Positions 1,123 through 46,648 of a stretch of DNA of 64,000 nucleotides are shown here, piece after piece; positions within the stretch are counted from its first letter, which is position 1, and every line of letters starts with the position of its first letter. Origin of the DNA: Bacteroidota bacterium (lineage in GTDB: Bacteria > Bacteroidota > Ignavibacteria > UBA10030 > UBA8401). Position numbers and translations under genes: made by a program. Where the stretch lies: contig JABWAK010000002.1 in the NCBI GenBank assembly GCA_013361065.1, forward strand, positions 2,273 to 66,272. The letters run 5' to 3'. The notes beneath the pieces were generated by a model, which was not told the origin of the DNA, did not search any database, and saw only the letters and a list, made by a program, of their open reading frames with translations.

Positions 1123-2451
1123 ATGGCAGAAGAAACACCCGAACAAGCTCCGGAGCAGCAGCAGCCGGAACAGCAGCAGAACGCCCCGAAACGGGATAAC
1201 CCGTTCCGCCGCAAGAACTTCCGGGGAAAATATCCCCGGCCGGAACGTAAACCGGATTCAGAGTTCTCATCGTTAGAGAATGTGGACGAACTTCCCGCCT
1301 CCATCTTCGGCGAGGAATCAGCCGCCGCCGAGAAGAAAGAACCGGAAGAACAGGGCGGTGTCTCCGCTCCGCAGTCTCAACCTCAATCGCAATCCCAGCC
1401 CCAACAGCGTCAGCAGCAGCGCCAGCAGAATCCGCGTCCCGAACGCCAGCAGCAGCCGCGCCAGCAGAACCCGCGTCCCGAACGCCAGCAGGAACAGCGT
1501 GCACCGCAGACCAATAACGGACGGGTCACCGTTTCCGTCGTCATCCCGCTGCTGAACGAGGATGAGTCGCTGCGCGAACTGCACGAACAGCTGAAGAATT
1601 CCCTGGCCCGCGTACCGGGCAACTACGAGCTGATCTTCGTGGATGACGGCTCCACCGACAACTCGTTCAAAGTGCTGAAGGAACTCAAGTCCCGCAACCC
1701 GCGCGTCAAGGCGATCCGTTTCCGCCGCAACTACGGCAAGAGCGCCGCACTGCAGGTCGGCTTCCAGAAAGCACAGGGAGAGTTCGTGATCACGATGGAT
1801 GCGGACCTGCAGGACGATCCGGCAGAGATCCCGAACCTGATCAAGGAACTGCGCGGCGGTCTCGACGTGGTCTCCGGATGGAAGAAACGCCGGAAGGACC
1901 CGCTCGGCAAGACCATCCCCTCCAAGTTCTTCAACTTCGTCACCGCGCTGGTCACCGGCATCAAGATCCACGACTTCAACTGCGGATTGAAGGGTTACAA
2001 ACTGGATGTGGTGAAGAGCGTGAATGTGTACGGCGAACTTCACCGGTACATCCCGGCGCTCGCTCATTGGGCCGGCTTCCGCGTCGGCGAAACGGTGGTG
2101 AACCACCGTCCCCGCCGCTACGGCAAGACCAAGTTCGGCATGGCGCGCTACTCGCGCGGCTTCCTGGACCTGCTGACGGTCGTCTTCACCACGCGCTACT
2201 TCTCCCGCCCGCTCCATCTGTTCGGCGGCTGGGGGATCCTCTCCGCGCTGGCAGGAATGATCATCAGCGGCTGGCTGGTGTACGAGAAGTACATGAACGG
2301 CATGCCGCTCAGCAACCGTCCCCTCTTCATCGTCGGTCTGATCATGGTGATCGTCGGCGTGCAGTTCGTCTCCATGGGACTGCTCGGCGAGCTCATCACC
2401 AAGAACCAGCATCTGGAAAAAGAGTACTCGGTCCGCGAAGAGATCAATTGA
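1123..2451 (+). CDS. GT2-family polyprenol-phosphate glycosyltransferase (DPM1/ArnC/GtrB-like) with a 75-125 aa low-complexity Q/P/E/R-rich N-terminal extension
   Basis: VSVVIPLLNEDESL...IFVDDGSTDNS...ITMDADLQDDP (DXD) GT-A fold core plus two C-terminal TM helices; N-terminus is low complexity and contains a 39-bp tandem DNA duplication. Confidence 0.85.
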   Translation: MAEETPEQAPEQQQPEQQQNAPKRDNPFRRKNFRGKYPRPERKPDSEFSSLENVDELPASIFGEESAAAEKKEPEEQGGVSAPQSQPQSQSQPQQRQQQRQQNPRPERQQQPRQQNPRPERQQEQRAPQTNNGRVTVSVVIPLLNEDESLRELHEQLKNSLARVPGNYELIFVDDGSTDNSFKVLKELKSRNPRVKAIRFRRNYGKSAALQVGFQKAQGEFVITMDADLQDDPAEIPNLIKELRGGLDVVSGWKKRRKDPLGKTIPSKFFNFVTALVTGIKIHDFNCGLKGYKLDVVKSVNVYGELHRYIPALAHWAGFRVGETVVNHRPRRYGKTKFGMARYSRGFLDLLTVVFTTRYFSRPLHLFGGWGILSALAGMIISGWLVYEKYMNGMPLSNRPLFIVGLIMVIVGVQFVSMGLLGELITKNQHLEKEYSVREEIN

Positions 2452-2521
2452 GCGTCCTCATTTTTCCATCATGATGTACGTTGAGACGCAGCGGTTTGCG
2501 TCTCAACCGTTTTAAACGACT

Positions 2522-3649
2522 ATGAAAATCCTCCTGTTCGGTCCGGCATACCCTCTCCGCGGCGGCATGGCGCACTTCATCGCGCTGCTGTACACGGAGC
2601 TGACGCGCCGCGGCCATCAGGTGAAGATCATCAACTTCACGCGACAGTATCCCAGGATCCTCTTCCCCGGCAAGACGCAGGAGGAGAGCGGCGAAGCCGG
2701 CATCCCGGTGCCGAGCACCGCGCTCATCGACTCCATCAATCCGTTCAACTGGCTCTATCACGGATACCGGCTGCGCCGCGAGAAGGCGGACCTCGTCATC
2801 TCCACGTTCTGGCTGCCGTTCCTCGCCCCCAGTTCCGGCACGCTGCATATGATGCTCCGCAGCAAGCGGACGAAGACACTCACCATCCTGCATAACCTGA
2901 TCCCGCACGAGAAGCGTCCGGGCGACATGCTCTTCACCCGCTGGCTGACGATGTTCACGGACTATTTCATCGCCCAGTCCGCCTCAGTGGAGAAGGACCT
3001 GCAGCAGTTCGTCCCGGGGGCCACATACCGGCGCGTGGCGCTGCCGATGTTCTCGCTGTTCAAAAACCGCATCCCGAAAGAGGAGGCGAAACGCGCGCTG
3101 AACATCACGGATGAACGCGTGATCCTCTTCTTCGGCTACATCCGTCCCTACAAAGGACTCCACGTACTTATCGATGCAATGAAGATCCTCAAGCAGCGGA
3201 TGAAGGTGCGGCTGCTCGTGTGCGGTGAGTTCTACGGGGACGAGGAGAAGTACCGGGCGCATATGACGGAGGCCGGCATCGACGACTGCACGACAGTGAT
3301 CTCGGACTACATCCCCAACGAGAAAGTCCACACATACTTCTCTGCTGCTGATGTGGTGGTGCAGCCGTACATCTCCGCCACACAGAGTGCCATCGCCCAG
3401 ATCGCGTACTTCTTCTCCTCCCCCATCATCGCCACGAATGTCGGTGCGCTGCCGGAGGTGGTGATCGACGGGCGCTCCGGACTGATCGTCCCGCCGAACG
3501 ACCCGCAGGCGATCGCCGATGCGGTCGTCCGCTTCTACGACGAGCGGCTGGAAGCGCCCCTGGCGGCGGGTGCCGCGGAGGAACGGAAGAAATATTCGTG
3601 GGAAGCAATGGCGGAAGCAATAGAAGAGCTCACACGAAATTCAAAATGA
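2522..3649 (+). CDS. GT4-family glycosyltransferase (Glycos_transf_1)
   Basis: C-terminal EX7E-type region ...FFGYIRPYKGLHVLIDA...VQPYISATQSAIAQIAYFFSSPIIATNVGALPEVV...GLIVPPNDP. Confidence 0.85.
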   Translation: MKILLFGPAYPLRGGMAHFIALLYTELTRRGHQVKIINFTRQYPRILFPGKTQEESGEAGIPVPSTALIDSINPFNWLYHGYRLRREKADLVISTFWLPFLAPSSGTLHMMLRSKRTKTLTILHNLIPHEKRPGDMLFTRWLTMFTDYFIAQSASVEKDLQQFVPGATYRRVALPMFSLFKNRIPKEEAKRALNITDERVILFFGYIRPYKGLHVLIDAMKILKQRMKVRLLVCGEFYGDEEKYRAHMTEAGIDDCTTVISDYIPNEKVHTYFSAADVVVQPYISATQSAIAQIAYFFSSPIIATNVGALPEVVIDGRSGLIVPPNDPQAIADAVVRFYDERLEAPLAAGAAEERKKYSWEAMAEAIEELTRNSK

Positions 3650-3748
3650 ATAATTGATAATGGATAATGGGGAACATTACCATATCAATTGTTCGTATTG
3701 GATCCACCATTCTTAATTATCAATTCATTCATTATCAATTGTTTTTGT

Positions 3749-4558
3749 ATGCAATACGATCCCATCAAGAATGTCATCGGTGATGTCGCCAAGAAGGCGC
3801 TCTTCCTCCGCAAGTTCTTCTACTGGCTGCTCGGGGTGCTCTTCCTCCGCACCTGGTATGTGAAACGTGCGCTCAACGAACTGCTCGCCGGGAAACAGGG
3901 AACGTTCCAGCTGTTCGATGCCGGGAGCGGGTTCGGTCAATACTCGTACTACATCGCCAAGCATTTCCCCGGCGCGCGTATCCACGCCATCGACGTCAAA
4001 GAGGACTACATCGCGGACTGTTCGCAGTTCTTCCCTGCCGCCGGCATCACCGCGGTGCACTTCGGCGTGGAGGACCTGACCATGCCGACGCATACGGACC
4101 GGTTCGACTTCATCCTGAGTGTGGATGTGATGGAGCATATCGCGGAGGATGAACTGGTGTTCCGTAACTTCCATGCGGCAATGAAGAAGGGCGGGCGGCT
4201 GCTCATCCACACCCCGTCCAACCTCGGCGGGTCGGACGTGCATCAGGAGGGGGACAAGAGTTTCGTGGAGGAACATGCGCGGGACGGCTATTCCGTGGAG
4301 GATATCACGGCGAAACTGCAGCGGGCCGGGTTCACGGTGCTCTATACGCGCTATTCGTACGGACCGGCCGGCACCCTGGCGTGGCGGCTGGTGGTGAAGT
4401 ATCCGCTGCTGATGGTGAATGCCAGCAAAGCGTTCTTCGTGGTGCTGCCGTTCTATTATCTGGCGACACTCTGGTTCAGTCTGACGCTGATGTGGATCGA
4501 CTTCCACTCCGCCAACAGCACCGGCACCGGACTGCTGGTGGCGGCGGAGAAGCGGTAA
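3749..4558 (+). CDS. Class I SAM-dependent methyltransferase, membrane-anchored
   Basis: LFDAGSGFGQYSYYIAKHFPGARIHAIDV (motif I) ...KKGGRLLIHTP; hydrophobic N- and C-termini; ORF 3689 start lies in AT-rich spacer, internal Met at 3749 preferred. Confidence 0.75.
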   Translation: MQYDPIKNVIGDVAKKALFLRKFFYWLLGVLFLRTWYVKRALNELLAGKQGTFQLFDAGSGFGQYSYYIAKHFPGARIHAIDVKEDYIADCSQFFPAAGITAVHFGVEDLTMPTHTDRFDFILSVDVMEHIAEDELVFRNFHAAMKKGGRLLIHTPSNLGGSDVHQEGDKSFVEEHARDGYSVEDITAKLQRAGFTVLYTRYSYGPAGTLAWRLVVKYPLLMVNASKAFFVVLPFYYLATLWFSLTLMWIDFHSANSTGTGLLVAAEKR

Positions 4559-4607
4559 CACATCGGAACAGTATCAACAGGTATAAAGCTTACGCAGACA
4601 GACGGTG

Positions 4608-4907
4608 TCACAGTTCAATCGAAAGATGCAGCTGGCCGCCTAAGCCGAACTCCACGATCCTCTGCAGCGTAGAAAGGCGGACCTCCTTGATGTCATTCTC
4701 TATCTTTGAGATGTAGGATTTCGTCGTGCCGACCTTCTCTGCCAGCGCTTCTTGGGTCAGCCCTTTTTCCCTTCTCGCTTCCTGCAGAAGCACACCGATC
4801 TTGAATCGTTCATACCCTTCCTCGAGGAGATCCCGTTTCTTCGTCCCCTTTTTTCCATACCGGCGTACTTTGAACTCTTCCAGTGTGAGCAGATTATGTT
4901 TTCCCAT
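4608..4907 (-). CDS. higA: HTH XRE-family antitoxin (HigA-like)
   Basis: ...GVLLQEARREKGLTQEALAEKVGTTKSYISKIEN... HTH_XRE; overlaps upstream toxin gene by 14 nt; AT-rich. Confidence 0.8.
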   Translation of the reverse strand: MGKHNLLTLEEFKVRRYGKKGTKKRDLLEEGYERFKIGVLLQEARREKGLTQEALAEKVGTTKSYISKIENDIKEVRLSTLQRIVEFGLGGQLHLSIEL

Positions 4908-5244
4908 CTTCGTACTCCTTTTTCAATAATAATGCGCGAGAGATCTCTTTTTTTGGAGTTTTTTGGGATGACTTGTGAAATCCGTGAAGAACGATCACCA
5001 GGTTGCCTTTGCTAAAAAAGCAGAATAACCGGACATGATCGCCTCCCTGCTGTATGCGGATCTCGTACAGACCATCGGTCCCAACGATATGCTTCAAATA
5101 CGATTCGGGAATCCGCGGCAGTTCCTCGATCAGCGTCAGCGTCCAAAGGATCTTCTGCTGCAGCTTTTCTCTTTGTCCGTTAAAAAATTCTAGAAAATAC
5201 TCCTTGTAAAAGAGAACAGCCCTGATGCGCTGTGATTTCTCCAT
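4894..5244 (-). CDS. higB: Type II toxin-antitoxin RelE/ParE-superfamily toxin, Gp49-like (HigB-like)
   Basis: YEIRIQQGGDHVRLFCFFSKGNLVIVLHGFHKSSQKTPKKEISRA matches PF05973 Gp49-like killer proteins; toxin-first order typical of HigBA. Confidence 0.8.
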   Translation of the reverse strand: MEKSQRIRAVLFYKEYFLEFFNGQREKLQQKILWTLTLIEELPRIPESYLKHIVGTDGLYEIRIQQGGDHVRLFCFFSKGNLVIVLHGFHKSSQKTPKKEISRALLLKKEYEDGKT

Positions 5245-5470
5245 GATGAAAGATACGAAAGGTTGCCCGATAGTGCAACTAACTGTTCATAGGAAAATAT
5301 TGTTCTTTTAGGACCTTAAGATGCGGCATCGTCCCGCGTGCTCCTTTCTTACATCTCACTGAAATTCTCCGTACCTTACGGGCGAGCAGGAGAATATTCC
5401 ATCCTCCTGCTGCATTCCTTCACTTCGTCAACGTCATCGTCGCAGCCCTGTCTGCCCTATCATTATCATC

Positions 5471-7126
5471 ATGGAATCCCTCATACACATCCTCGCGGAG
5501 AACAAGCTCATCCTGCTCTTCTCCATCATCGGCCTCGGCTTCCTCGTCGGACAGCTGCGGGTGCTCGGTTTCAGTCTGGGCGTAGCAGCCGTCCTCTTCA
5601 CCGGTATCGCATTCGGCGCGCTGGACAAGCGCCTGATACTGCCGGAAGAGATCTACATCGTCGGCCTCGTCCTGTTCGTCTACTCGATCGGTCTGCAGTC
5701 CGGACCGAGTTTCTTCGCCTCCTTCAACCGGAAGAGCCTCCGCGCGAACCTCTTCGTGGTGCTCATCCTCATCTCCGGTGCGGCGATCGCCGCCCTGTTC
5801 ACGCAGCTCTTCGGGTTCGATGCACCGAACGCTGCCGGGATCTTCTGCGGCGCACTGACCAACACGCCGGCGCTTGCCGCTTCTGTGGAAGCGGTGAAAT
5901 CGTACACCGCCCAATACCCGGCGGAACTGCGCGAACAGCTGCTGAACGCCCCGGTGATCACCTATGGTCTCACCTATCCCTTCGGCGTGCTGGGGGTGAT
6001 CCTCTGGTACTACATCTTCGCCAAATGGCAGAAGGTCGATTTCGCAAAGGAAGAGGCGGAGCGGAGCCGGGAGGCCGGCTCGGGCGCCATCCTCACCAAG
6101 ACGTTCCTCGTAACGAATCCCGCCGTCATCGGCAAGCAGGCGGAGGAGGTGCTGAACCTGATCGAACAGCGCCGGTTCGTCCTGAGCCGCTTCAAACGGG
6201 GGACGACCATCAACATCATCCTGCCGGACACGGTGTTCGAGAAGAACGACCTGATCGCCGCGGTCGGCACGGCCGATGCGCTGCAGCGTGCGCAGATCAT
6301 CCTCGGCGAGGCGGCGGACGACAAGCTGACACTGGACAATGCCGGCTTCGAGTACCGGCGGATGTTCGTCTCCAACGAGCATGTGGTCGGCAAAGAGATC
6401 CACGACCTGCATCTGGAGAAGGAGTACGGCGCGACCATCACACGCGTGCGCCGCGGCGATGTCGATTTCGTCCCCTCACCCGACACCATTCTGGAACTCG
6501 GCGACCGCGTCCGCGTGGTGACGCGCCACGAGAACATCCAGCGCATCACGAACTTCTTCGGTGATTCGATGAAGTCGATCTCCGAGACCGATTTCCTCTC
6601 CATCTCCCTCGGCATCGTGCTCGGGGTGTTCCTCGGTATGCTACCCATCCCGCTCCCCAACGGCTCCACGTTCAAACTGGGGTTCGCCGGCGGACCGCTC
6701 ATCGCCTCGCTCATCCTCGGACGGCTCCAGCGGACCGGTTCCATCACCTGGACGATGCCGTTCAACGCCAATCTGGTGCTGCGGCAGATCGGCCTGGTCT
6801 TCTTTTTGGCCGGGATCGGCGTGAAAGCCGGTCAGGGGTTCGGCGCAACGTTCCAGGCGGACGGTCTCGTGATGATCGCTGCGGGAGCCCTGCTGACAAC
6901 GGTTATTTCGTTCTTGACATTGACCATCGGTTATAAATATCTTCATCTCCCCATGTCCGCCGTCATGGGGGTCTCCAGTGCGCTCCAGACGCAGCCTGCG
7001 GCACTCGCCTACGCGAACCAGCAGGCACGGAACGACCAGCCGAACATGTACTATGCGATGGTCTATCCGGCATCGATGATCACCAAGATCATCCTGGCGC
7101 AGATGCTGATCACGGCGTTGTGGTAA
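5471..7126 (+). CDS. YidE/YbjL-family putative transporter (AAE family), duplicated permease halves with two central TrkA-C (RCK_C) domains
   Basis: N-terminal MESLIHILAENKLILLFSIIGLGFLVGQL..., two soluble RCK_C-like segments in the middle, second permease half at C-terminus. Confidence 0.85.
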   Translation: MESLIHILAENKLILLFSIIGLGFLVGQLRVLGFSLGVAAVLFTGIAFGALDKRLILPEEIYIVGLVLFVYSIGLQSGPSFFASFNRKSLRANLFVVLILISGAAIAALFTQLFGFDAPNAAGIFCGALTNTPALAASVEAVKSYTAQYPAELREQLLNAPVITYGLTYPFGVLGVILWYYIFAKWQKVDFAKEEAERSREAGSGAILTKTFLVTNPAVIGKQAEEVLNLIEQRRFVLSRFKRGTTINIILPDTVFEKNDLIAAVGTADALQRAQIILGEAADDKLTLDNAGFEYRRMFVSNEHVVGKEIHDLHLEKEYGATITRVRRGDVDFVPSPDTILELGDRVRVVTRHENIQRITNFFGDSMKSISETDFLSISLGIVLGVFLGMLPIPLPNGSTFKLGFAGGPLIASLILGRLQRTGSITWTMPFNANLVLRQIGLVFFLAGIGVKAGQGFGATFQADGLVMIAAGALLTTVISFLTLTIGYKYLHLPMSAVMGVSSALQTQPAALAYANQQARNDQPNMYYAMVYPASMITKIILAQMLITALW

Positions 7127-8488: not shown

Positions 8489-10675
8489 TCACTGCGTGTC
8501 CACCGTGCTTTCAATGGCGGACTGGATCGTCGGCGAGACCTTGCCGAGGAAGTCATATCCGGTCGCTGATTCCACGGCATCCACGCTCACGCGGAACGTC
8601 TTCCAGTCCGCGGTGCGGCTGATGAGCGCATCGCTGTTCGGCATGATCACGGCGATCACGCGGGTGGAGGTGCTGACGCGGGAGAGGTCGTTCGTCCCTT
8701 CCGGGATGACAACGACCACTTTCCATGTGTGCGTCGGGATGTTGACGCGTCCTGCATCGACCGTTCCCTGCGAACCATAGCCGCCGGAGTAGATATAGAG
8801 TTCGTTCCCGGCGGTGACGAGCGTGCGCAGATAGTTCTCCATGTTCGCCCAGGGACCCTGGTTGTTGTTCGGTGCCTGCGGGACCATGTTCGTCATGAGG
8901 AAGGTCGAGGAATTATCCGCCACGGTCGCCGTGCGGTCCGCCGAGGGACACATATGGCCGCGGTCATAACCGCTGCCGCTGTAGCTGGTGGAGCCGACCT
9001 GATACCAGCCGGACGGAAGCGTCGCATCGGCGCGGAAGTCATCCTGCCGTGCGGTGCTGCCGATCCAGGAGGCGTTCAGATGCCAGGCGACCCAGTTGGC
9101 GGTCCCTTTATCGCGGTGGTACGACAGCACATACTGCGCTTTTTCCATCAGGTAATTGGTGGTCAGGTTCACATCGCTTGCGGCATTGCTCGGATTGCCG
9201 AGGATGGTATGGACGCTCGTGGAAGTGGTGGTATCCGTTCCGCCGCCTCCCCCGCCGCCGTACGTGGTCAGGTTCGCGGTCACCGTATAGGCGGTCGTGG
9301 TGCTGGAGCCGGACACGGAGACGACCTGGGCATAATAGGTCTCATTCGTAGTGGAATTATAGGAGATGCTCTCCGAAACACCCGCACCGTTCGCCGAGCT
9401 GGCCACGGTGACACCGGCAGCGTTGAGCAGCTGCAGGTCATAGTTCACACCGGCCGGCACGGTGAGACCGAGCGCGATGGTCTGTGTGGAGGTTGCCGAC
9501 AGCGAGAAGACATCGACATCGGTGGTGGCGCTGATCAATCCCGTGTGCGTTGCCGGCATGGTGCCGAAGGCATTGGCCGTTCCGGTCGTATTGTTCGGTT
9601 CGGTTTCAGAGACAGTGGGGGTCACGGCGAAATCCGAGACATTGATCTCGTCGAAGTTCAGCCGGACGGAATTCGAACCGGTCGTCTTGCGGATCTCCAG
9701 CCGCACGGTGCCGGCCACATTCGGAGTGAAGGTCGCCGTGCTCAATGTCGTGGAGGTCGTGGTGATGGTGGAACCGGTCTGCGTCCAGCTGGTGCCGCTG
9801 TTGGTGGAATACCAGAGCTGCCAGGAGCTGTTGGCATCCGTGCCGTATTTTGCATGCTGGATGGTCACGGTACCGATACCGTTCGTCCGGTTGAATTTCA
9901 TCGTCAGCTTGCCAGTGTTCTGGATGCGGGCGCTCTTGGTGCCGACCTTACGGTCGCTGGTGGAGGTGCCGATCATCGCATTCGTGAAGGTCCAGACCCC
10001 GGACTGCAGCGTGACATCACCGGTGGTGTACGACGTTTTCGTGCCGCTCTCGAACGATTCCCACGCGGTGCTTCCGCCGCCGCTGCCGGCGTAATCATTG
10101 ATGACGAAGTCATCGAAGTTCACGCGGTTCGTGGTGCCGTCCGTTTTGCGGATCTCGAAGCGGATCGTTCCGGTGATGTTCACGGTGAACGAAGCGGTCG
10201 CAAGGGTCGTGGAGGATGTTGTGATCGTTGCACCGGTCTGCGTCCACGTGCTGCCGCTGTTGGTGGAGTACCACAGCTGCCAGGTGGTGTTCGCATCGGT
10301 ACCGTATTTGGCATGCTTCACGGTGACCACACCGGCGCCGTCCGTCCGGTTGAACTTCATCGTCAGCTTCCCGCTGTTGCGGGTACGGATACTTTTCGTG
10401 CCGACCATCGGGTCGCTTGCAGAGGTGCCGACGAGTGCTTCATCCAGCGTCCACACACCGGATCCGAACGTCACATCACCGACCGCATACGATGTTTTCG
10501 TTCCCGCTTCGAATCCTTCGTTGACGGTCACAGCCTGCATCATCTGGCTGACGGATTCGGTGGGGGATTTTTGGACGGCGGAGGGTGGATCGACGGGGGT
10601 TTGCTGACATGCTGGAACGACGAGCAGGAGGAGGGCGGCGAGTACGACCGCCGTGGCGCGCTGGAGAAACTTCAT
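8489..10675 (-). CDS. Extracellular multidomain DNA/RNA non-specific endonuclease lipoprotein: two tandem ~150-aa beta-sandwich repeats, a PPC-like domain, a Gly-rich linker, and a NucA-family (DRGH) nuclease domain
   Basis: Lipobox VVPAC; two near-identical repeats (...GKLTMKFNRT.G.G.VT..HAKYGTDAN..WQLWYSTNSG..WTQTG...); C-terminal GYDRGHMCPSADR...FLMTNMVPQAPNNNQGPW is the Serratia-nuclease beta-beta-alpha-Me motif. Confidence 0.85.
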   Translation of the reverse strand: MKFLQRATAVVLAALLLLVVPACQQTPVDPPSAVQKSPTESVSQMMQAVTVNEGFEAGTKTSYAVGDVTFGSGVWTLDEALVGTSASDPMVGTKSIRTRNSGKLTMKFNRTDGAGVVTVKHAKYGTDANTTWQLWYSTNSGSTWTQTGATITTSSTTLATASFTVNITGTIRFEIRKTDGTTNRVNFDDFVINDYAGSGGGSTAWESFESGTKTSYTTGDVTLQSGVWTFTNAMIGTSTSDRKVGTKSARIQNTGKLTMKFNRTNGIGTVTIQHAKYGTDANSSWQLWYSTNSGTSWTQTGSTITTTSTTLSTATFTPNVAGTVRLEIRKTTGSNSVRLNFDEINVSDFAVTPTVSETEPNNTTGTANAFGTMPATHTGLISATTDVDVFSLSATSTQTIALGLTVPAGVNYDLQLLNAAGVTVASSANGAGVSESISYNSTTNETYYAQVVSVSGSSTTTAYTVTANLTTYGGGGGGGTDTTTSTSVHTILGNPSNAASDVNLTTNYLMEKAQYVLSYHRDKGTANWVAWHLNASWIGSTARQDDFRADATLPSGWYQVGSTSYSGSGYDRGHMCPSADRTATVADNSSTFLMTNMVPQAPNNNQGPWANMENYLRTLVTAGNELYIYSGGYGSQGTVDAGRVNIPTHTWKVVVVIPEGTNDLSRVSTSTRVIAVIMPNSDALISRTADWKTFRVSVDAVESATGYDFLGKVSPTIQSAIESTVDTQ

Positions 10676-15718: not shown

Positions 15719-16735
15719 GTGGCAAAACGAATCGAAAAGAGCGAGACCCCGAAGACTAAACGCAGTGATGTGGAGGCGGTCCGCGAACTGAACGAATCCT
15801 ATCAGGCGATGCGCGCCGAGATCGGCAAGGTGATCATCGGTCAGGATGTGATCATCGAACAGCTCTTCATCTCCCTCCTCTCCCGCGGACATTGCCTGCT
15901 GGTCGGGGTGCCGGGACTGGCCAAGACGCTGCTCATCAAAACGCTGGCCGATGTGCTGGACCTGAAGTTCAACCGGATCCAGTTCACGCCGGACCTGATG
16001 CCGAGCGACATCACCGGTACCGAGATCATCGAAGAGGACAAGAAGAGCGGCGGCAAGGTGTTCAAGTTCGTGGAAGGACCGGTCTTCTCCAACATCGTAC
16101 TGGCGGATGAGATCAACCGCACCCCGCCCAAGACGCAGGCAGCGCTGCTCGAGTCGATGCAGGAGCACAAAGTGACCGCCGCCGGCAAGACCTACACGCT
16201 CGCCGAACCGTTCTTCGTCCTGGCCACCCAGAACCCGATCGAACAGGAAGGGACCTATCCGCTGCCGGAAGCGCAGCTGGACCGGTTCATGTTCAACCTC
16301 TGGCTGGAGTATCCGTCGTTCGAGGAGGAGAAACAGATCGTGAAGGCGACGACCAGTCAGTACTCGCCGAAACTGAAGCATGTGCTGGATGCCGATGCTA
16401 TCATCGACTTCCAGGAACTCGTCCGCCGGGTGCCGGTGGCGGACAATGTGATCGAGTATGCCGTGAGTCTCGTGGCGAAGACCCGTCCGAAGGATGCGCG
16501 CTCGCCGCAGGCGGTGAAGGACTGGCTCACCTGGGGTGCCGGTCCGCGTGCCTCGCAGTACCTGATCCTCGGCGCGAAGTGCCGCTCCATCCTGCACGGC
16601 AAGTACACACCGGACATCGACGATGTGCGCGCCGTGGCCGTACCGGTGCTGCGCCACCGCATCATCCCCAATTTCAACGCGGAAGCGGACGGTATCACCG
16701 CGGTACAGGTGATCGAGTCAATAGTCAAAATATAA
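15719..16735 (+). CDS. moxR: MoxR-family AAA+ ATPase
   Basis: GHCLLVGVPGLAKT (Walker A) ...VLADEINRTPPKTQAALLESMQE... typical MoxR. Confidence 0.9.
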   Translation: MAKRIEKSETPKTKRSDVEAVRELNESYQAMRAEIGKVIIGQDVIIEQLFISLLSRGHCLLVGVPGLAKTLLIKTLADVLDLKFNRIQFTPDLMPSDITGTEIIEEDKKSGGKVFKFVEGPVFSNIVLADEINRTPPKTQAALLESMQEHKVTAAGKTYTLAEPFFVLATQNPIEQEGTYPLPEAQLDRFMFNLWLEYPSFEEEKQIVKATTSQYSPKLKHVLDADAIIDFQELVRRVPVADNVIEYAVSLVAKTRPKDARSPQAVKDWLTWGAGPRASQYLILGAKCRSILHGKYTPDIDDVRAVAVPVLRHRIIPNFNAEADGITAVQVIESIVKI

Positions 16736-16797
16736 TCGGTTTAGACTTTTTCATTATAACTTCGTTAATGTTTCTGCAATAACACTCTCGAATCAAT

Positions 16798-17715
16798 ATG
16801 ACCTTAACAGATAAAATAAAATACAAGACAACATTTAAGCAGGCGCTTGATAACCTTGCCAACACACTTGTGAGTCACGTTTCGACAAGTGAAGGTGATT
16901 GGTCTATTAAGGGTTTTATTGATGTATACAAAAATATATATACGATTTCCTCTGACACTAAAATCATCTCAAAAATATTGGAGATTCATCTTTTCCCTCA
17001 AATAATTGAATTCGCTAAGAGCATCGATTATAAAATTGTCCTCGCTGAAAAGCAAAACTGGTATCCAGATCTAACATTTATCAACAATCATGATAACACG
17101 GTAAAATTTGCGGTAGATATTAAAACAACTTTCAGGCGGAAGAACAAAATAGCCGGATTTACACTCGGAAGTCATGGAGCTTATTTCAAAGAACGCGATA
17201 AAGACAAAAACATTCAGTTTCCATATAACCAGTATTCTGGTCATTTTTGTTTAGCGGTAATTTACACAAGAACTGACATTCATGGAGATATTCCTGAAGC
17301 GGATATTCTTCAAGTTCATGATTTACAAGAATCTTACGAACCTAATAGAAATACTGTAGGGACAAGGAAAATAACAAACGTAAAAAATTTAAAATCCATT
17401 ACATCTGTGATAAAAGATTTTGATATTTTTGCGGCGGAAAAATGGAAAATCGCTAGCGACAAACAAGGGTCGGGAAATACCGCAAATATTGGCTCAATAA
17501 TAGAAATCAACGATTTAAAGAATGAAAATGGCATTTTTAGCAAATTAGGTGAAGAGTGGTTTGATGAGTATTGGATAAATCACGGTTCTGCTAGAATGAT
17601 AAAGAAAGGAAAGTCAGTAAAAATTACTAATCTTAGAGATTATTTAATTTTTAAAGGAAAAGAAGACCTTTGGGAAAAAGTGGTTGGTAAAAAAAAGAAA
17701 GAAAAAGATAAATGA
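16798..17715 (+). CDS. Type II restriction endonuclease, EcoRV family (predicted GATATC)
   Basis: NWYPDLTF...FAVDIKTTF (PD-(D/E)xK) ...FPYNQYSGHFCLAVIYTR...EKWKIASDKQGSGNTANIGSI...ENGIFSKLGEEWFDEYW parallels R.EcoRV (NHYPDFTL...IAIDIKTTY...DKWVIAGDLAGSGNTTNIGSI), from recall; AT-rich. Confidence 0.8.
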   Translation: MTLTDKIKYKTTFKQALDNLANTLVSHVSTSEGDWSIKGFIDVYKNIYTISSDTKIISKILEIHLFPQIIEFAKSIDYKIVLAEKQNWYPDLTFINNHDNTVKFAVDIKTTFRRKNKIAGFTLGSHGAYFKERDKDKNIQFPYNQYSGHFCLAVIYTRTDIHGDIPEADILQVHDLQESYEPNRNTVGTRKITNVKNLKSITSVIKDFDIFAAEKWKIASDKQGSGNTANIGSIIEINDLKNENGIFSKLGEEWFDEYWINHGSARMIKKGKSVKITNLRDYLIFKGKEDLWEKVVGKKKKEKDK

Positions 17716-18638
17716 AAGTTGTGGTGCCCCCTATAAAAAGCCAAGGTATTAAAACCAAATTAGTGCCGTGGATCAAAGAAATTGCTCCAAAGGTGACCGG
17801 GCGATGGATAGAACCATTCCTTGGCACTGGTGTGGTAGCATTCAACTCTGGATATAAATCAGCTATTCTTAATGATACCAACCCACATATTATTAATTTT
17901 TACAAAGGTGTGCAGGCCGGGGTTATTACGGCGCCTCTAATGAAAAAATATTTAGAGCGTGAGGGCGAATTATTGAGTAGGGCTGATAATAATGGATATG
18001 AACATTATCTATCGGTGAGGAAGAGATTTAATTCTGGAGAGTACTCTCCTTATGATTTCATTTTTCTTTCCCGTGCTGGTTTTAATGGAATGATGCGATT
18101 TGGTAGTAAGGGAAATTGGAATATTCCGTTTTGTAAAAAGCCTGATCGGTTCGCCCAAGCTTATATAACCAAAATTACCAACCAGTTGTCTTCTGTCGCT
18201 CAAATAATTCAACCCGAACCACTTTGGAGTTTTCACAATAAAAATTTCACAGAAATCATTCCATTGGCTAAAGAACAAGATATAATTTATTGTGACCCTC
18301 CCTATTTTGGGAGACATGTCGACTATTATAACGGTTGGTCAGAGAAAGACGAAGAAACATTGTATTCACTTTTACATGAAACCAAGGCCAAATTTATTCT
18401 TTCTACATGGCATCATAATGAGTGGCGAGAAAATGATATGATAGCTAGATATTGGAATAAGTTTAATATTATTACAAAGGATCATTTTTATCACAATGGT
18501 GGAAGTATTGAGAATCGCAGAACCGTTGTGGAGGCTTTGGTGTGTAATTTTGACGTGAATAAATTTGAGACACATAATCATGGAGTTCAAAGCAAAGTAA
18601 AAGTTGAACAACTTGCTATATTTACAGAGTCTGTATAG
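17712..18638 (+). CDS. Dam-family N6-adenine DNA methyltransferase, M.EcoRV-like
   Basis: MKVVVPPIKSQGIKTKLVPWIKEIAP...EPFLGTGVVAFN (motif I) ...IYCDPPYFG (motif IV DPPY) ...STWHHNEWREN; near-collinear with M.EcoRV; 4-nt overlap with R gene. Confidence 0.85.
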   Translation: MKVVVPPIKSQGIKTKLVPWIKEIAPKVTGRWIEPFLGTGVVAFNSGYKSAILNDTNPHIINFYKGVQAGVITAPLMKKYLEREGELLSRADNNGYEHYLSVRKRFNSGEYSPYDFIFLSRAGFNGMMRFGSKGNWNIPFCKKPDRFAQAYITKITNQLSSVAQIIQPEPLWSFHNKNFTEIIPLAKEQDIIYCDPPYFGRHVDYYNGWSEKDEETLYSLLHETKAKFILSTWHHNEWRENDMIARYWNKFNIITKDHFYHNGGSIENRRTVVEALVCNFDVNKFETHNHGVQSKVKVEQLAIFTESV

Positions 18639-18648
18639 CAAGATTACC

Positions 18649-19926
18649 GTGAAAATAGCTGAATCACTAATAGCGATAGTAATTTCTGCAAGTTTTGCGT
18701 TCTCTCAGCATAATCTGCAAAATAGGGAGGAAGTTGACAATTTTGTCTCAGCGCTCTACGCCGAAGGCAACTACTGGAAACTGATGGAACTCTCCCGTCA
18801 GTTCCCCGCCGACTCTCTCTCCCCCCGTTTCGATTTCCATCTCGGTATGAGCTATGCCGCGCTCGGCGAACCGCAGCGCGCCCAGGAGCATCTCACACGC
18901 GCCATTGCGCTTGAACCTGCCCGTCTCCAGTACCGGTACCAGTTCGCACGGGTCCTGTCGCAGTCCGGTCAGTACGCCGACGCGGCCGAACAGCTGCGGC
19001 GGTGTATCGCGATGGATTCCACATACCTTCCGGCACGGTTCCAGCTGGGACTCGCCATCGCCGCCCAGAGGAACGATCCGTTCGCGGAGATGGAGGTCTT
19101 CACCGGACTGGTCGAACGGAATCCGAACGATGTGCTGAGTCTCTACCATCTCTCCGAAGCGCTGAAGCGTGCGGGCCAGCCGGACAGCGCCGCCGTATTC
19201 CTCCGCCGTGCCCTTGCGGTCAATCCCCGCTACGTTCCGGCGCTCATCGCCCTCTCCAACCATCTGAACGGACAGAAGCGGTACGCCGAGGCGCTGCCGC
19301 TCTACCTGCGCGCCGATTCGGTGCGGGGCGGGAACAAGGACCTGCTCTTCCAGATCGGGGAATGTTACCGGCGGCTCGGCGAACTCCCGTCCGCGCGGTC
19401 GTACTTCCGCAGAGCGATCGCACTCGATTCCATGAACGGTCTGTATCACGCGCAGCTCGCCTATGCGTACTTCAGCGACGCTCTGTACGATTCGTCGATC
19501 GCTTCCTACCGCACTGCGCTCCTGTTCGACGAAGAGAATGCACAGTACCATCTGAATCTTGCGCTGGTCTATGCGAAACTGGACGATAGGCCGAATGTGC
19601 TCCGCTCGTACGCGGAGGCGGTCCGCGTGATGCATCCGGAACTCGCCGCAGCGGTCTTCTACGATCAGGGGACGTACTGCTTCCAGAAGAAACTCTGGAA
19701 GGAGGCGGTGACCGCCTACGGCAGGGCGATCGATATCGATCCGGCCCTTTCCCTCGCCTACTATTTCAAAGGCTCCTGCCTCATGCAGCTGAACGAGCAT
19801 GCGGCGGCACTTCCGCTCTTCACCGAATTCCTCTCCCGGACGAAGGAGAGCACGGAATTCAAGGGAGAACGCTATTCTGCCCAGAAAATGTCCGACTATA
19901 TCAAAGAGTTGCGGAAGAAGAAGTGA
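18649..19926 (+). CDS. TPR-repeat protein, secreted; N-terminal signal peptide encoded inside the AT-rich RM island
   Basis: GTG start gives MKIAESLIAIVISASFAFSQ signal peptide, then TPR repeats in GC-rich DNA; alternative internal start MELSRQ (18787) would lack a signal peptide. Confidence 0.65.
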   Translation: MKIAESLIAIVISASFAFSQHNLQNREEVDNFVSALYAEGNYWKLMELSRQFPADSLSPRFDFHLGMSYAALGEPQRAQEHLTRAIALEPARLQYRYQFARVLSQSGQYADAAEQLRRCIAMDSTYLPARFQLGLAIAAQRNDPFAEMEVFTGLVERNPNDVLSLYHLSEALKRAGQPDSAAVFLRRALAVNPRYVPALIALSNHLNGQKRYAEALPLYLRADSVRGGNKDLLFQIGECYRRLGELPSARSYFRRAIALDSMNGLYHAQLAYAYFSDALYDSSIASYRTALLFDEENAQYHLNLALVYAKLDDRPNVLRSYAEAVRVMHPELAAAVFYDQGTYCFQKKLWKEAVTAYGRAIDIDPALSLAYYFKGSCLMQLNEHAAALPLFTEFLSRTKESTEFKGERYSAQKMSDYIKELRKKK

Positions 19927-30703: not shown

Positions 30704-31477
30704 TCAACGCACCTGCATGCCGTTCTTGCAGTAAACGAGCATGGCGCGACTGAGGAATTGCGCCAGTCCCGGTGCATACGCATCATAGGTGGCGGTGAAC
30801 CGCGGGTCCTCCACATACATCGCCGCCAATCCCCGGTAGATCTCCTCCGTGACATCATAGAAGAATTCGATAGAGTTGCGATGCTCCTCCACGGCGCGCT
30901 GCACCTCGGCATCGGCCGGGTCCTTCGTCATCAGCAGCGCCAGCCGGCGGTGCAGGGCATCCGACCGCTCCTTGTATGCGCGCCACTGTTCCTTCGTCAG
31001 CGCCCGTACGCGCCGTTCGGATTCCGCAACACGCTCCTTCCCCCAGCGCATCTCTGCTTCCCCCTTGTATGCCGAGGCCTGCTCCGGTGTGAAGCCGTCG
31101 TACAATTCCTTGTCCGTGACCATGGTCGTTCCTTTCTCGATATCGTTCAACGTTCGTTCGATGGTGTGCAGCAGCACCGACAGCCGTCCCTGTTCCTTCT
31201 CGAGCTGCTCCCGATGGGACCGTAATGAAGCGGCAAGGTCGAACTCCGGATCATCCAGCACGCGGACGATCTCGCGCAGCGGGTATCCGAGCGCACTGTA
31301 GAACAGGATCTGCTGCAGACGGAGCAGGTCGTTCCGGTCATAGAGCCGGTACCGCTTCTCGCTCCGCTGCGACGGGACGAGGAGTCCCATGGCATCGTAA
31401 TGATGGAGCGTGCGGATGCTGACGCCGGAGAGCGCGGCAAGCCGGCGGACGGTATACAGGGTCGGTGCTGTTCCCAT
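30704..31477 (-). CDS. MerR-family transcriptional regulator with TipAS-like C-terminal domain
   Basis: YTVRRLAALSGVSIRTLHHYDAMGLL (MerR HTH) + C-terminal TipAS-like helical domain. Confidence 0.8.
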   Translation of the reverse strand: MGTAPTLYTVRRLAALSGVSIRTLHHYDAMGLLVPSQRSEKRYRLYDRNDLLRLQQILFYSALGYPLREIVRVLDDPEFDLAASLRSHREQLEKEQGRLSVLLHTIERTLNDIEKGTTMVTDKELYDGFTPEQASAYKGEAEMRWGKERVAESERRVRALTKEQWRAYKERSDALHRRLALLMTKDPADAEVQRAVEEHRNSIEFFYDVTEEIYRGLAAMYVEDPRFTATYDAYAPGLAQFLSRAMLVYCKNGMQVR

Positions 31478-31824
31478 GGAGGATGCTGATGAATGTGAAG
31501 GGTGTCTGTTCAGGGATTGCTGCATCACCCTACAAATATACGCACTGACGTTGCGTGAGGGTCAAGGGCGAATGGTCAAAAATTTACATTTTTTTCGGTT
31601 AGAATGTGCTCTGCGGGGATGCCGTTACCGCCGGAGATGCAGTAGTTGGCGATAGCGGTATATTTTTATTCTACACTGTTGCTTATCCGTGTCAAAAAGA
31701 TCAATTTACGGTATGAGATTGTGATGGGGGGGGCATTCCGTATAATTCACATTTAAATAAATAATCATTGATAAATTCTATCTAATCTTATGTTGGGCCG
31801 TTTTTCAACCAGAGAGTTGTTACC

Positions 31825-32694
31825 ATGAGATTGAAGTTCTTTTTAGTTCTGGTATTGGCCTTTTTTTGTCTTTCCAGTGAATTTGCACTTTCACAGGACT
31901 CAATTGAGGAGATCCCAATTGCTGGAGTGTGGACGTGTGACCGCCCACCCTACGGCATCGATACACTCATAATTTCCGGTGACAGAATAGTTCTCTCCTT
32001 TGTGGTGGAAGTCGGCGGTCAATCTCGTCATATTTACGGCCGAGTCATTAAAAGTGTGGCAGAGAAGAGCCAACTTGCTTACGAAATCTACAAGGTGATA
32101 GAAGGTAACGTAGTTGTCCCGTCAGCACCCGAACATCGGTTTATGGTATATGAAGTGGCAGAGACTGAGCTTTGGACATATACTGATTCTGGCGCATTTC
32201 CGGATCGCGCCTTCCTCAAAGCAAATGCCTACCGAAGTGCATGGCGAACGAAAGATATTCAGCCGTATTTGGTCCGATTCTATGAAAGCTCAAGTTCGGC
32301 ATGTATAGACTCCGTCCTCTATTCAATCTACGACCATCGAGGAGTAACGCGGGGATCGTCCTACGTGACCATTCCACCCAAGTTTATAGGAGGAGTACAG
32401 GCATATGACGCCTACTTCCAACAGGGATTCAACAGGCAAGAATCTCTTGATGGCATTTTCGGCATTGTGAGTGTCTCTTGTACAATAACCTGCAATGGAT
32501 CGGTATCCAATGTTGAAGTGGCAGAAGGTAGGATGAGCGTCCTCCTTCCTAAGACACTTGAATTACTCATGAAGTTAGTATCGGGAATGCCGAATTGGAT
32601 CCCCGCACTTAGTGACTACCGGAAAGTGCCCTGCAGAATAGAAATCCCTTTTGTTATCTCAGATGGCAGGCTGCGTGCGGGCCGTCCGCGATGA
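31825..32694 (+). CDS. Secreted hypothetical protein with C-terminal TonB_C-like domain; AT-rich island
   Basis: Signal peptide MRLKFFLVLVLAFFCLSSEFALSQ; C-terminus GIFGIVSVSCTITCNGSVSNVEVAEG...IPALSDYRKVPCRIEIPFVI resembles TonB C-terminal fold. Confidence 0.5.
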   Translation: MRLKFFLVLVLAFFCLSSEFALSQDSIEEIPIAGVWTCDRPPYGIDTLIISGDRIVLSFVVEVGGQSRHIYGRVIKSVAEKSQLAYEIYKVIEGNVVVPSAPEHRFMVYEVAETELWTYTDSGAFPDRAFLKANAYRSAWRTKDIQPYLVRFYESSSSACIDSVLYSIYDHRGVTRGSSYVTIPPKFIGGVQAYDAYFQQGFNRQESLDGIFGIVSVSCTITCNGSVSNVEVAEGRMSVLLPKTLELLMKLVSGMPNWIPALSDYRKVPCRIEIPFVISDGRLRAGRPR

Positions 32695-32907
32695 AACGGC
32701 CTAACAAGCGGCTCATGACTGACCCCGCAACCGCATTCCTGCCTGTCGGCAGGCATGCGCTCTGAAACTCAAGTGTTGAGTCGTCAGCATACAACTTAGG
32801 ATACGAAAGCTCATTTTATATACATGAGCACTGACCTCTGACCCTGAATGGTTACGGGATAGCTTATCCGCCATCCGATACATGATTGCTATTCTTAATA
32901 ATCCCCT

Positions 32908-33471
32908 ATGAAATATCAATCAACGCTAATCCTGCTGTTTATAGTGCTCCTTTCGCTTTTACATAATGGTTGTTATTCTCCTCAAACGAAGAGATCGGTA
33001 TTTATTTATAAAGGAATGGACTACACTGCATTTTGTGCAGATTCAGTCCGTGTATATTTATCAAATTGGTTTGATTCTACAATTCTTCATTCGGGGACCG
33101 ATAGTTGTAACGGATATTCAGGTGTTTCCTTCACTGATCCTGAACTTACTAATTTGTTAACCAGCGGTGAATTAACAGGAGAGATGTTTTGTAAAGCTAT
33201 TGAGAAACAAACGGGTGAGTACCCACGGCCTCAATTTGATTCATATTTAGGTGATTCCTATCATGATTCGCTAAACTCAGATTTAAATTGGCATGGTGGA
33301 TTGATTGTCGTGGTTCAATGGTTGAATAGATGTACCATTAACGGAGATCGACAAACCACGTTGTGTGTATCAATGAATAGGTTTGAGGTTGGAGGAGATT
33401 GTATGCTATTTTCTTTCACTATTAAGGATGATAAAATTAGAGACTTCAAGTATAAAGGATATATTCTTTAA
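32908..33471 (+). CDS. Hypothetical lipoprotein; AT-rich island
   Basis: Lipobox LLHNGC; no recognisable domain. Confidence 0.45.
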   Translation: MKYQSTLILLFIVLLSLLHNGCYSPQTKRSVFIYKGMDYTAFCADSVRVYLSNWFDSTILHSGTDSCNGYSGVSFTDPELTNLLTSGELTGEMFCKAIEKQTGEYPRPQFDSYLGDSYHDSLNSDLNWHGGLIVVVQWLNRCTINGDRQTTLCVSMNRFEVGGDCMLFSFTIKDDKIRDFKYKGYIL

Positions 33472-33701
33472 TTATTCTATTCTTTGCAATCGCTCTGCCA
33501 TATTAACAATGAACCCCGCATAGAAGCATTGCGGAACAGACAGTTGCAACTGTGGCCTCGAAAAAGTCCCAAGTGTCATGAAATCTAAACTCAACATACG
33601 ATTCGTCAGTATTCAGCATATTAAAAATAAAGCGCGTGGTCGCAGTAAAACGTCTTCACGTAGTTTAGTCGCCATCCGTTAGGCGGTTTCCGAGTATATC
33701 A

Positions 33702-34529
33702 ATGATAGACGAAAGAGTGATTAATATATATACTGACGGTTCGTCAAGGTCAACTCCTCGGCGCGGCGGTGTTGGAATAAGGTATATTTATGTAAACGAA
33801 AGTGGTGCGGAAATTTCGACCGATCTTAATTTACCTGGTTACCCTAATGCCACCAGTCAAGAAATGGAGTTACAAGCTTGCGTATTGGCATTGAATCATT
33901 TAGACGACTATCCTGACTTAGCAAGATTCACAAAAGTAGTGATTTACAGCGACTCCAAATACGTTGTTGACAATTTCCACAATGCTCTGTTTCGTTGGTC
34001 AAAGAATGGATGGACTCGAAAAGAAGGAGCTCCCGTGTTGAATGCCACTATTTGGAAGGAGCTATTAAAAGCTATTCGCAAATGCCGACGTAGGGTAGAA
34101 TTCACTAAAGTAAAGGGTCACTCGACAGACCCTCACAATAAAGCAGTGGACAAACTCGCTAAGATATCCTCTTCAATACCATTTAATCAGGCACTTTCAC
34201 CAACAATTGTTCGACGCAAGATGTCTGATCGAAAAACTAAAATTGGCAGTGTGCTTGCAATCGGCCAAAGAATTACAATTCGAATTGTCCAAAGTCAATA
34301 CTTGCGAGAACAAAAGTTGTATCGATATCGATATGAAGTGATGTCTAAATCTAGTCCATTCTACAAGAATGTGGATTTTGCTGTCACTGAACATATCTTG
34401 CGAGAAGCGCATACATATTCTGTTCGAATAAATTCTGAACAAGCTAATCCAAGGATTGTCAAAGTATTCAGAGAGACGATCCCAAACGCGGTTAACAAGG
34501 CAAAGAGAAATGATAATAAAACTGCTTAA
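33702..34529 (+). CDS. RNase HI domain fused to an uncharacterised ~125-aa C-terminal domain; AT-rich island
   Basis: INIYTDGSS...SQEMELQA...VVIYSDSKYVV...VKGHSTDPHNKAVDKLAK gives all five RNase HI catalytic positions (D,E,D,H,D); C-terminal 125 aa unassigned. Confidence 0.7.
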   Translation: MIDERVINIYTDGSSRSTPRRGGVGIRYIYVNESGAEISTDLNLPGYPNATSQEMELQACVLALNHLDDYPDLARFTKVVIYSDSKYVVDNFHNALFRWSKNGWTRKEGAPVLNATIWKELLKAIRKCRRRVEFTKVKGHSTDPHNKAVDKLAKISSSIPFNQALSPTIVRRKMSDRKTKIGSVLAIGQRITIRIVQSQYLREQKLYRYRYEVMSKSSPFYKNVDFAVTEHILREAHTYSVRINSEQANPRIVKVFRETIPNAVNKAKRNDNKTA

Positions 34530-34844
34530 CCATATCATAATAGAACCCCGAATAGAACCATTGCGGGGCAAACCCCGCCCAACAACGGCAGGACGGGCTC
34601 GTCAAAAAAAATTAATCCCCGTTCGCATCATGCAGCACAATGATGCGTTCAATATCCCTTGAAGCTGCACAATTTCCATCCTGCCGCCCGGCCAACGTTT
34701 GTCCTCATGACGGTATCTGACTGCGGCGGCGATCCCCGGGGCGGCCGGTACCGCCGTACAGCGGAAATCGCGAAAATTCCGTATATTATGGTAGTTTCTT
34801 TCCGTCCGGTACCGGACAGTATCGTCCAATAACTTAGGGTTCCC

Positions 34845-45720: not shown

Positions 45721-45815
45721 ACCTGCCGGTCCATGCTGGACAGGCGTTGTGCGATTCTCTATATTGAGTCGTTCTTACAGATCAACCACTCTTCACTCCC
45801 AACGGGCACAGACAT

Positions 45816-46620: not shown

Positions 46621-46648
46621 GAAAACATTGAATGAAGGATGGACCACG

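Follow-up and report, generated by a model that had tools for sequence, protein, structure and literature searches.

A low-GC EcoRV-family restriction–modification module between moxR and a TPR gene in an Ignavibacteria genome

Contig JABWAK010000002.1 of the assembly GCA_013361065.1, a Bacteroidota metagenome-assembled genome (MAG) from the class Ignavibacteria, contains a short AT-rich block that separates a gene encoding a MoxR-type AAA ATPase (moxR) from a gene encoding a TPR protein. The stretch analysed here, referred to as the window, comprises 64,000 nucleotides of this contig (positions 2,273 to 66,272), and the block within it raises the question of what it encodes, from where it was obtained and how it came to occupy the junction of two host genes. 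A preliminary description proposed that it is an AT-rich, horizontally acquired island carrying a complete EcoRV-family restriction–modification (R-M) pair, and this proposal is upheld by comparisons with Pfam, PDB and PADLOC, with the EcoRV plasmid pLG13 and with an empty site in related genomes. The block is very likely (with a probability of roughly 0.9) to represent an intact, horizontally acquired EcoRV-family type II R-M module, composed of genes for a restriction endonuclease (R) and a DNA methyltransferase (M).

The endonuclease and methyltransferase genes and their low-GC setting

The R gene (16798–17715, 305 amino acids) and the M gene (17712–18638, 308 amino acids) lie on the same strand, with R preceding M and the start of M overlapping the stop of R in a 4-nt ATGA; the coordinates and the overlap are exactly those first described. 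R matches the Pfam family Endonuc-EcoRV (PF09233) with 333.4 bits against a cutoff of 25, in two stretches that are split at an insertion found throughout its subfamily, and it also matches the PADLOC REase_II model; no matching model was found in NCBIfam. In a phmmer comparison with EcoRV chains from the PDB (E=2e-30), chain residues 8–141 and 148–244 of 245 are covered, while the identity to authentic EcoRV encoded by pLG13 amounts to 31 % by BLASTP (E=2e-35) and 33 % in a multiple alignment. NCBI already lists R at 100 % identity, on a 98.6-kb MAG contig labelled 'Bacteroidetes bacterium', under the product name 'restriction endonuclease'.

The roles of the catalytic residues of EcoRV, and of its R-loop and Q-loop in reading GATATC, are known. 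In an alignment of 20 family members including EcoRV, the residues E62 (EcoRV E45), P90-D91 (P73-D74), D107 and K109 (D90 and K92) of R are invariant, as is the Q-loop pair Q86-N87 (Q69-N70). The recognition loop G224-S-G-N227-T228-A229-N230, which corresponds to EcoRV residues 182–188 (GSGNTTN), is likewise invariant apart from the equivalent of T187, which is Ala in R and in every non-EcoRV member aligned. The claim that R possesses the EcoRV catalytic and recognition segments, originally made by eye, therefore holds at the level of individual residues. Compared to EcoRV, R has ~17 additional N-terminal residues, an internal insertion of ~20–28 residues (around residues 165–192) and a Lys-rich C-terminal tail. 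An AlphaFold2 model of R built from an 18-sequence alignment was too poor for a fold search (mean pLDDT 47.2, pTM 0.48), and an EcoRV-type fold is predicted from homology.

M matches PF02086 with 143.7 bits (cutoff 22) over profile positions 2–252 of 253, the Dam-family model TIGR00571 with 175.8 bits (cutoff 114.85) and the PADLOC MTase_II model (E=3e-111), and scores below the cutoff of the Dam equivalog NF008152 (76.9 bits vs 441). Its identity to M.EcoRV, the product of the pLG13 M gene, is 55 % across 279 amino acids (E=4e-112), whereas matches to the structures of DpnII-type, E. coli and T4 Dam enzymes are weaker (E=1e-15 to 1e-11). The motif I segment EPFLGTGVVAFN occupies residues 34–45 (with the FxGxG-type EPFLGTG at 34–40) and DPPY residues 195–198, which places the S-adenosylmethionine motif N-terminal to the catalytic DPPY. 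M and M.EcoRV are collinear and have in common the segments VPPIKSQGIKTKL, FNGM.RF.SKG..N.PF, KKP.RFAQAYITKI and YCDPPY.GRH, as anticipated when M was described as near-collinear with M.EcoRV on the basis of motif I and DPPY. By sequence comparison, M is to be regarded as a close relative of M.EcoRV and R as a distant relative of EcoRV, and the original wording of a 'close relative' of EcoRV is appropriate for the former protein but not for the latter.

The compositional contrast of the island with its surroundings is sharp. In 300-bp windows, GC content falls from 0.61–0.63 (16300–16749) to 0.31–0.39 (16750–18699) and returns to 0.59–0.66 from position 18700 onwards, and at the third codon position (GC3) it is 0.29 in R and 0.32 in M, compared to 0.82 in moxR and 0.77 in the TPR gene. 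The interval 16736–18740 has a GC content of 34.7 %, in agreement with the previous estimate of ~35 %, but the accompanying background figure of ~65 % is true only of the immediate flanks (0.60–0.66), the remaining window having 58.2 %. When the edges are set by the positions at which similarity to the empty-site locus L008 (described below) stops (16717) and restarts (18753), the foreign block extends over about 2,035 bp (16718–18752) and takes in the last five moxR codons with the stop, as well as the first ~31 codons of the TPR gene. The moxR open reading frame (ORF), including its island-encoded tail, spans 15719–16735. The features of the locus are as follows:

15719–16717, + strand: native GC-rich part of host moxR, the left flank (Pfam AAA_3, E=4e-64)
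16718–16735, + strand: AT-rich substitute for the last five codons and stop of moxR (SIVKI-stop, compared to NLLK-stop or KLLQ-stop in relatives; similarity to loci L008, L010, L014 and L016 ends at ~16717)
16736–16797, + strand: AT-rich non-coding leader of 62 bp, 5' of R, without sequence conserved in homologous modules
16798–17715, + strand: R gene, EcoRV-family type IIP restriction endonuclease, 305 amino acids (PF09233, E=9.8e-100)
17712–18638, + strand: M gene, Dam-family (D12 class) N6-adenine DNA methyltransferase, 308 amino acids (PF02086, E=1e-41)
18649–18752, + strand: AT-rich 5' end of the TPR gene, with a putative GTG start and a signal-peptide-like N-terminus VKIAESLIAIVISASFAFSQHNLQNREEVDNFVSAL (assigned from frame, sequence and ortholog comparison)
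18753–19926, + strand: native GC-rich part of the host TPR gene, the right flank (multiple TPR Pfam families)

The block has none of the hallmarks of a classical mobile element (transposase or integrase, terminal repeats, target duplication, tRNA site). According to the ORF inventory it holds R and M only, with neither an integrase nor a transposase, and at its edges no boundary-spanning direct or inverted repeats and no target duplication were found beyond chance. The 64-kb window contains no tRNA or tmRNA genes and gave no Rfam matches. Comparison of the island edges with 98 loci by blastn yielded no match, the non-coding edges not being conserved among modules, and the leader 5' of R showed no upstream similarity when aligned with the closest homologous locus, L098 (80 % identity).

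The empty site and the route of entry

Relatives of the host locus were collected with the TPR protein as the query against a set of genomes that included a single representative of each species. The closest, L008 from the MAG Bacteroidota GS21, encodes a TPR protein 85 % identical to that of the window and matches the DNA on both sides of the island, window positions 16600–16717 corresponding to L008 7791–7908 at 91 % identity and positions 18753–18900 to L008 8015–8162 at 90 %. This locus has no R-M genes, and its moxR stop overlaps the TPR start (ATGATGATG). The same moxR–TPR adjacency was observed in three further loci (L010, L014 and L016), and synteny is maintained on both sides, with genes for an M23 peptidase, MoxR, the TPR protein and a SpoIIE-type phosphatase. 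On the grounds of this overlap, adjacency and synteny, the ancestral state is best reconstructed as a tightly coupled moxR–TPR operon, in which the 2,035-bp block has replaced ~106 bp of the junction and rewritten both gene ends. The island had been described as 'inserted between' the two genes, which is correct with respect to its position but does not apply in the sense of a clean insertion. Horizontal transfer, also claimed from the outset, is supported both by the GC and GC3 contrast and by the empty site in relatives, and the unameliorated composition, together with the absence of the module from a relative with ~90 % identical flanks, indicates that the gain was lineage-specific and probably recent. 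Two MAG contigs labelled 'Synechococcus sp. UW140' (L009) and 'Chitinophaga pinensis' (L015) contain TPR orthologs with 60–63 % identity, and these labels look like binning or naming errors.

The consequences for the TPR protein depend on where its translation begins. The GTG at 18649 is a possible start; together with the sequence VKIAESLIAIVISASFAFSQHNLQNREEVDNFVSAL that follows, it is in frame with the native TPR sequence, and the distance from this start to the EGNYW motif is 38 amino acids, compared to 35–38 in 28 orthologs. The hydrophobic core of the ortholog N-termini is often followed by xFSQ, which appears in the window protein as AFSQ. Against a hidden Markov model of the ortholog N-terminus, the window sequence scores 7.1 bits, a value reached by 41 of 24,634 stop-free AT-rich decoy peptides, while true orthologs score 33–57 bits. 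A signal-peptide-like N-terminus is present in every full-length close TPR ortholog (P0122–P0150) and is omitted by the NCBI annotation of the TPR protein on the same contig, which starts at M46 (P0121, 380 amino acids). Either the insertion cost the TPR protein its export signal, or translation in fact begins within island DNA, at GTG 18649 (or TTG 18604).

An illegitimate insertion (non-homologous or guided by microhomology), accompanied by a deletion of ~106 bp, has about an even chance of being the route by which the module entered. The island-encoded moxR stop and TPR start would then be fortuitous, and the TPR protein may be N-terminally truncated and devoid of its signal peptide, in keeping with the NCBI start at M46. 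The candidate upstream start, moreover, is a GTG with a weakly charged n-region, and the module has no conserved edges. Insertions consisting only of R-M genes, without mobility genes, have been documented (Furuta, Abe and Kobayashi 2010, PMC2853133), and, as in the window, they comprise a small insert with a GC content below that of the host, recognized by comparison with an empty site and lacking an integrase or transposase. The documented cases typically exhibit long target duplications or flanking repeats, whereas in the window neither was found and ~106 bp were replaced. An illegitimate insertion is harder to reconcile with the neat closure of the moxR frame and opening of the TPR frame by foreign DNA, as well as with a new TPR N-terminus that is signal-peptide-like, for which the chance is ~0.2 %, and of ortholog length.

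These gene ends are suggestive, although not proof, of homologous (allelic) replacement, the donor being a relative of lower GC content in which the R-M genes already lay between moxR and the TPR gene, a route that we put forward tentatively and regard as the less probable of the two. The AT-rich ends would in that case be the donor's orthologous gene ends, with crossovers in the conserved segments ...ADGITAVQ.IE and ...ALYAEGNYWKLME. Allelic replacement would account for the in-frame substitution of both gene ends and for a TPR N-terminus of ortholog architecture (start distance, hydrophobic core and AFSQ, with CFSQ or AFSQ in orthologs) that outscores 99.8 % of the AT-rich decoys. It is also consistent with the resemblance of the moxR tail ESIVKI-stop to ENLLK-stop and EKLLQ-stop, with the fact that both breakpoints border the locally best conserved DNA, and with the lack of an integrase, transposase, tRNA, terminal repeat or target duplication. 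On the other hand, a donor locus of the order moxR–R–M–TPR was not found among 83 loci with R homologs, and moxR or the TPR gene lies near none of them, including L098, whose upstream DNA is unrelated. Furthermore, a donor of ~35 % GC would share little DNA identity with a recipient of ~60 % GC, and the score of 7.1 bits is far below that of true orthologs, so that the N-terminus may be a generic or fortuitous signal-like peptide.

Sequence specificity, expression and alternative readings

The target of the system is probably GATATC, as judged from the homology of both proteins. R would act as a homodimeric endonuclease of the PD-(D/E)XK type, most likely cutting unmethylated GATATC, and M as a Dam-related N6-adenine methyltransferase, most likely protecting the same site. 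M.EcoRV methylates the first adenine of its target, G(m6A)TATC, rather than producing GAT(m6A)TC as stated in the preliminary description. The enzyme has been described as reading GATATC as an expanded Dam site (PMC3526282, PMC4417163).

The window contains 30 GATATC sites, none of which is within the island. Of the positions named previously, 4301, 15309 and 35489 are correct, while the site listed at 19733 begins at 19732. The expected number is 16.7 according to dinucleotide shuffles and 25.6 under a Markov-4 model, and an apparent enrichment of the site was dropped as a signal in view of the latter value. The corresponding observed/expected (O/E) ratio of 1.17 is unremarkable and silent on methylation, contrary to the earlier argument that GATATC is 'frequent' and therefore consistent with active methylation. 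The count is in keeping with a module gained too recently for avoidance to have developed, and it implies that R, if active, needs an active M. Inside the modules, the O/E of GATATC is 0.27–0.42, other palindromes being equally low and the sequences not independent. In the host part of the window (excluding 16718–18752), several other 6-bp palindromes are rare, with Markov-2/3 O/E ratios of 0.25–0.30 for GAGCTC, 0.28–0.45 for GGATCC and 0.33–0.42 for GTGCAC, and a Markov-2 ratio of 0.26 for GGGCCC, which hints at other, older restriction systems in the lineage.

With regard to expression, the organization of the module differs from that of the EcoRV operon, in which M is divergent and a helix-turn-helix (HTH), C-like gene precedes R. 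In pLG13 (L001), RefSeq places the gene for this 99-amino-acid HTH regulator at 981–1280, overlapping the 5' end of ecoRVR and divergent from ecoRVM. In the window, no ORF for an HTH or controller (C) protein accompanies the R-M pair, which follows the order R then M with an overlap. A scan detected no terminator-like site between moxR, R, M and the TPR gene, and no promoter-like match in the 62-bp leader. Given that both genes point in the direction of the moxR operon, with no terminator-like site in between, read-through transcription combined with translational coupling is plausible; R and M would be co-transcribed and coupled via the ATGA overlap, without a C protein, and host read-through could express the module. 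Where R precedes M and a C protein is lacking, operons depend on M promoters located internally and on antisense promoters, a situation exemplified by Eco29kI (PMC3113576), in which R likewise precedes and partly overlaps M in a single operon. By analogy, an Eco29kI-like solution, with an M promoter inside R and antisense promoters, is the most plausible arrangement here. Eco29kI is nonetheless a regulatory analogue and not a homolog, as its enzyme families and specificity are unrelated, and the consensus promoter scan of the window module remained at chance.

The case for an intact EcoRV-family module with GATATC as its target has several weaker points. The specificity is derived from homology only, R being 31–33 % identical to EcoRV, with Ala in place of T187 and with the additional insertion and Lys-rich tail. 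Carrier genomes exhibit no GATATC avoidance: across 317 kb of sequence flanking the module in 71 loci, the O/E is 0.89 (Markov-2) or 0.74 (Markov-3), mid-rank among 64 palindromes, and this indirect comparison is silent on specificity. The scan for sigma-70-type promoters and terminators yielded counts equal to those in shuffled sequences, and no promoter is assignable, Bacteroidota promoters differing from the consensus. Finally, the source is a MAG contig. None of the evidence contradicts the R-M assignment itself.

The divergence of R from EcoRV and the lack of avoidance would also fit a genuine EcoRV-family pair that recognizes a related or expanded site other than GATATC, and the shifts in specificity by site expansion known among Dam-family methyltransferases (PMC3526282) provide a precedent. 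This alternative is nevertheless unlikely, given that the equivalents of the base-contacting residues N185, T186 and N188 and of Q69 and N70 in the Q-loop are invariant, that M retains its 55 % identity to and collinearity with M.EcoRV, including the putative DNA-contact segments, and that R and M would need a joint change in specificity. Inactivity or attenuation of R, in which case the locus would act through its GATATC methyltransferase alone while the partner decays, is more doubtful still. It might be suspected from the position of R upstream of M without a C protein, a layout with which establishment in a new host should be difficult (PMC3113576), and from the occurrence of GATATC about every 2 kb in the host; however, R is full length, its catalytic and recognition residues are all invariant, and the unameliorated composition leaves little time for decay. 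In addition, the R-then-M layout is kept in nearly all homologous loci, with identities of 67–76 % for R and 66–85 % for M, which indicates purifying selection on both. An assembly chimera can practically be set aside, in spite of the metagenomic source, because the flanks are two halves of one conserved overlapping gene junction, both flanking ORFs keep their frame and stay closed, and other contigs of higher GC content (L085, L089, L047, L046, L026 and L074) contain comparably tight low-GC R-M blocks.

A Bacteroidota/Ignavibacteria subfamily of EcoRV-type modules

A single protein search with R recovered 6,579 related clusters. Its best 119 non-self matches are nearly all 305 amino acids long and 71–80 % identical, and they originate from Bacteroidota, Cyclobacteriaceae, Microscillaceae and Ignavibacteriales MAGs, as well as from metagenomes; for some R relatives, the name 'EcoRV family type II restriction endonuclease' is already in use. 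As is generally the case for type II R-M systems, R and M are separate, adjacent genes, and their linkage is conserved in relatives: a ~307-amino-acid M homolog is located directly 3' of R in 81 of 82 homologous loci, and the lone exception is due to a contig end. Compared to these homologs, both window proteins are full length (305 amino acids for R, 307–308 for M). The GC content of the modules is 0.29–0.40 across hosts in which that of the flanks varies from 0.28 to 0.56.

The low-GC modules most similar to that of the window, such as those of Ignavibacteriales GCA_016710175.1 (L004) and JGI Ga0183872 (L007), encode R proteins 72–80 % and M proteins 66–85 % identical to those of the window, and they share with it the protein lengths, the ATGA overlap, the internal insertion, the basic tail and the low GC content. 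None of them is located beside moxR or a TPR gene, and most match their own flanks in GC content, whereas the window module forms a sharp compositional island. More distant are the plasmid-borne pairs of Rhodothermus marinus pRMAR01 and Antarctobacter heliothermus pSMS3-1, which are also arranged as R then M with an overlap of 4 nt (ATGA in pRMAR01) or 1 nt; their R and M are 55–57 % and 47–53 % identical to those of the window, but they lack the internal insertion of the subfamily and differ in GC content. With the EcoRV system of E. coli pLG13 (NC_005019; structures 1RVE and 1EO3), the window R shares PF09233, the catalytic equivalents, the Q-loop and the GSGNTxN loop, yet EcoRV is carried by a small mobilizable plasmid, while the window module is chromosomal in a Bacteroidota MAG.

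The framing of the module in the preliminary description as a close relative of an enterobacterial plasmid system could therefore not be sustained, as the nearest relatives are 305-amino-acid proteins, 72–80 % identical, from low-GC Bacteroidota/Ignavibacteria MAGs with the same R-then-M layout. On account of these relatives, the linkage and a layout unlike that of EcoRV, the window module is assigned, by sequence, to a large low-GC Bacteroidota/Ignavibacteria subfamily of EcoRV-type systems and is not a close copy of the enterobacterial plasmid system; the donor pool is probably this low-GC group rather than enterobacterial plasmids.

Mobility genes were observed near some of the relatives. 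In the interval 1931–6569 of pSMS3-1 (L003), the R-M pair and repA are flanked on either side by a gene for the same IS6-family transposase (WP_094037312.1), each copy lying on the minus strand, an arrangement that resembles an IS6-bounded composite unit and thus another mobility route for the EcoRV family. In L004, the R-M module is followed at a distance of ~0.8 kb by an IS605 OrfB/TnpB-like gene (8602–9972) with a Cas12f1-like_TNB domain, and is directly preceded by a gene for an NYN/OST-HTH protein, which occupies the same upstream position in L005 and L006.

Elsewhere in the window, a second low-GC patch at 31000–35000 (GC 0.39–0.52, compared to ~0.60 around it) may be another horizontally acquired segment. 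It includes an ORF for a 275-amino-acid protein with an N-terminal RNase H domain (33702–34529; E=9e-32) and one with a weak TonB_C-like match (31825–32694), while the ORFs 32908–33471 and 34602–35288 (the latter on the minus strand) gave no Pfam match. Further GC dips occur at 46001–47000 (0.465) and 1–1000 (0.483), and the ORFs 45335–46270 (+ strand) and 46304–47212 (− strand) likewise gave no Pfam match.

The window module is a real but ordinary horizontally acquired defence system, an uncharacterised addition to a family that is known and already annotated. With an empty site preserved in a sister genome and its own composition still unameliorated, it is a textbook-like case of a type II R-M cassette that was recently acquired, of little importance beyond annotation. 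The genes for the 305-amino-acid R and ~307-amino-acid M proteins would move between genomes as a bare cassette. There is a small chance that this two-gene unit spreads by homology-facilitated allelic replacement with donor gene ends, or that the subfamily insertion and basic tail alter its properties or specificity in comparison with EcoRV. If allelic replacement did take place, the new moxR tail and TPR signal peptide would have allowed entry into a translationally coupled operon without its inactivation. The replaced gene ends provide a small case study of the entry of bare R-M units into operons, and all of this is unsurprising to R-M specialists. For the family as a whole, the 6,579 clusters indicate that it is numerically dominated by the uncharacterised Bacteroidota/Ignavibacteria subfamily, with its R-then-M overlap and no C protein, and, if expressed, the enzyme described here might find use as an isoschizomer of EcoRV that originates from an environmental lineage.

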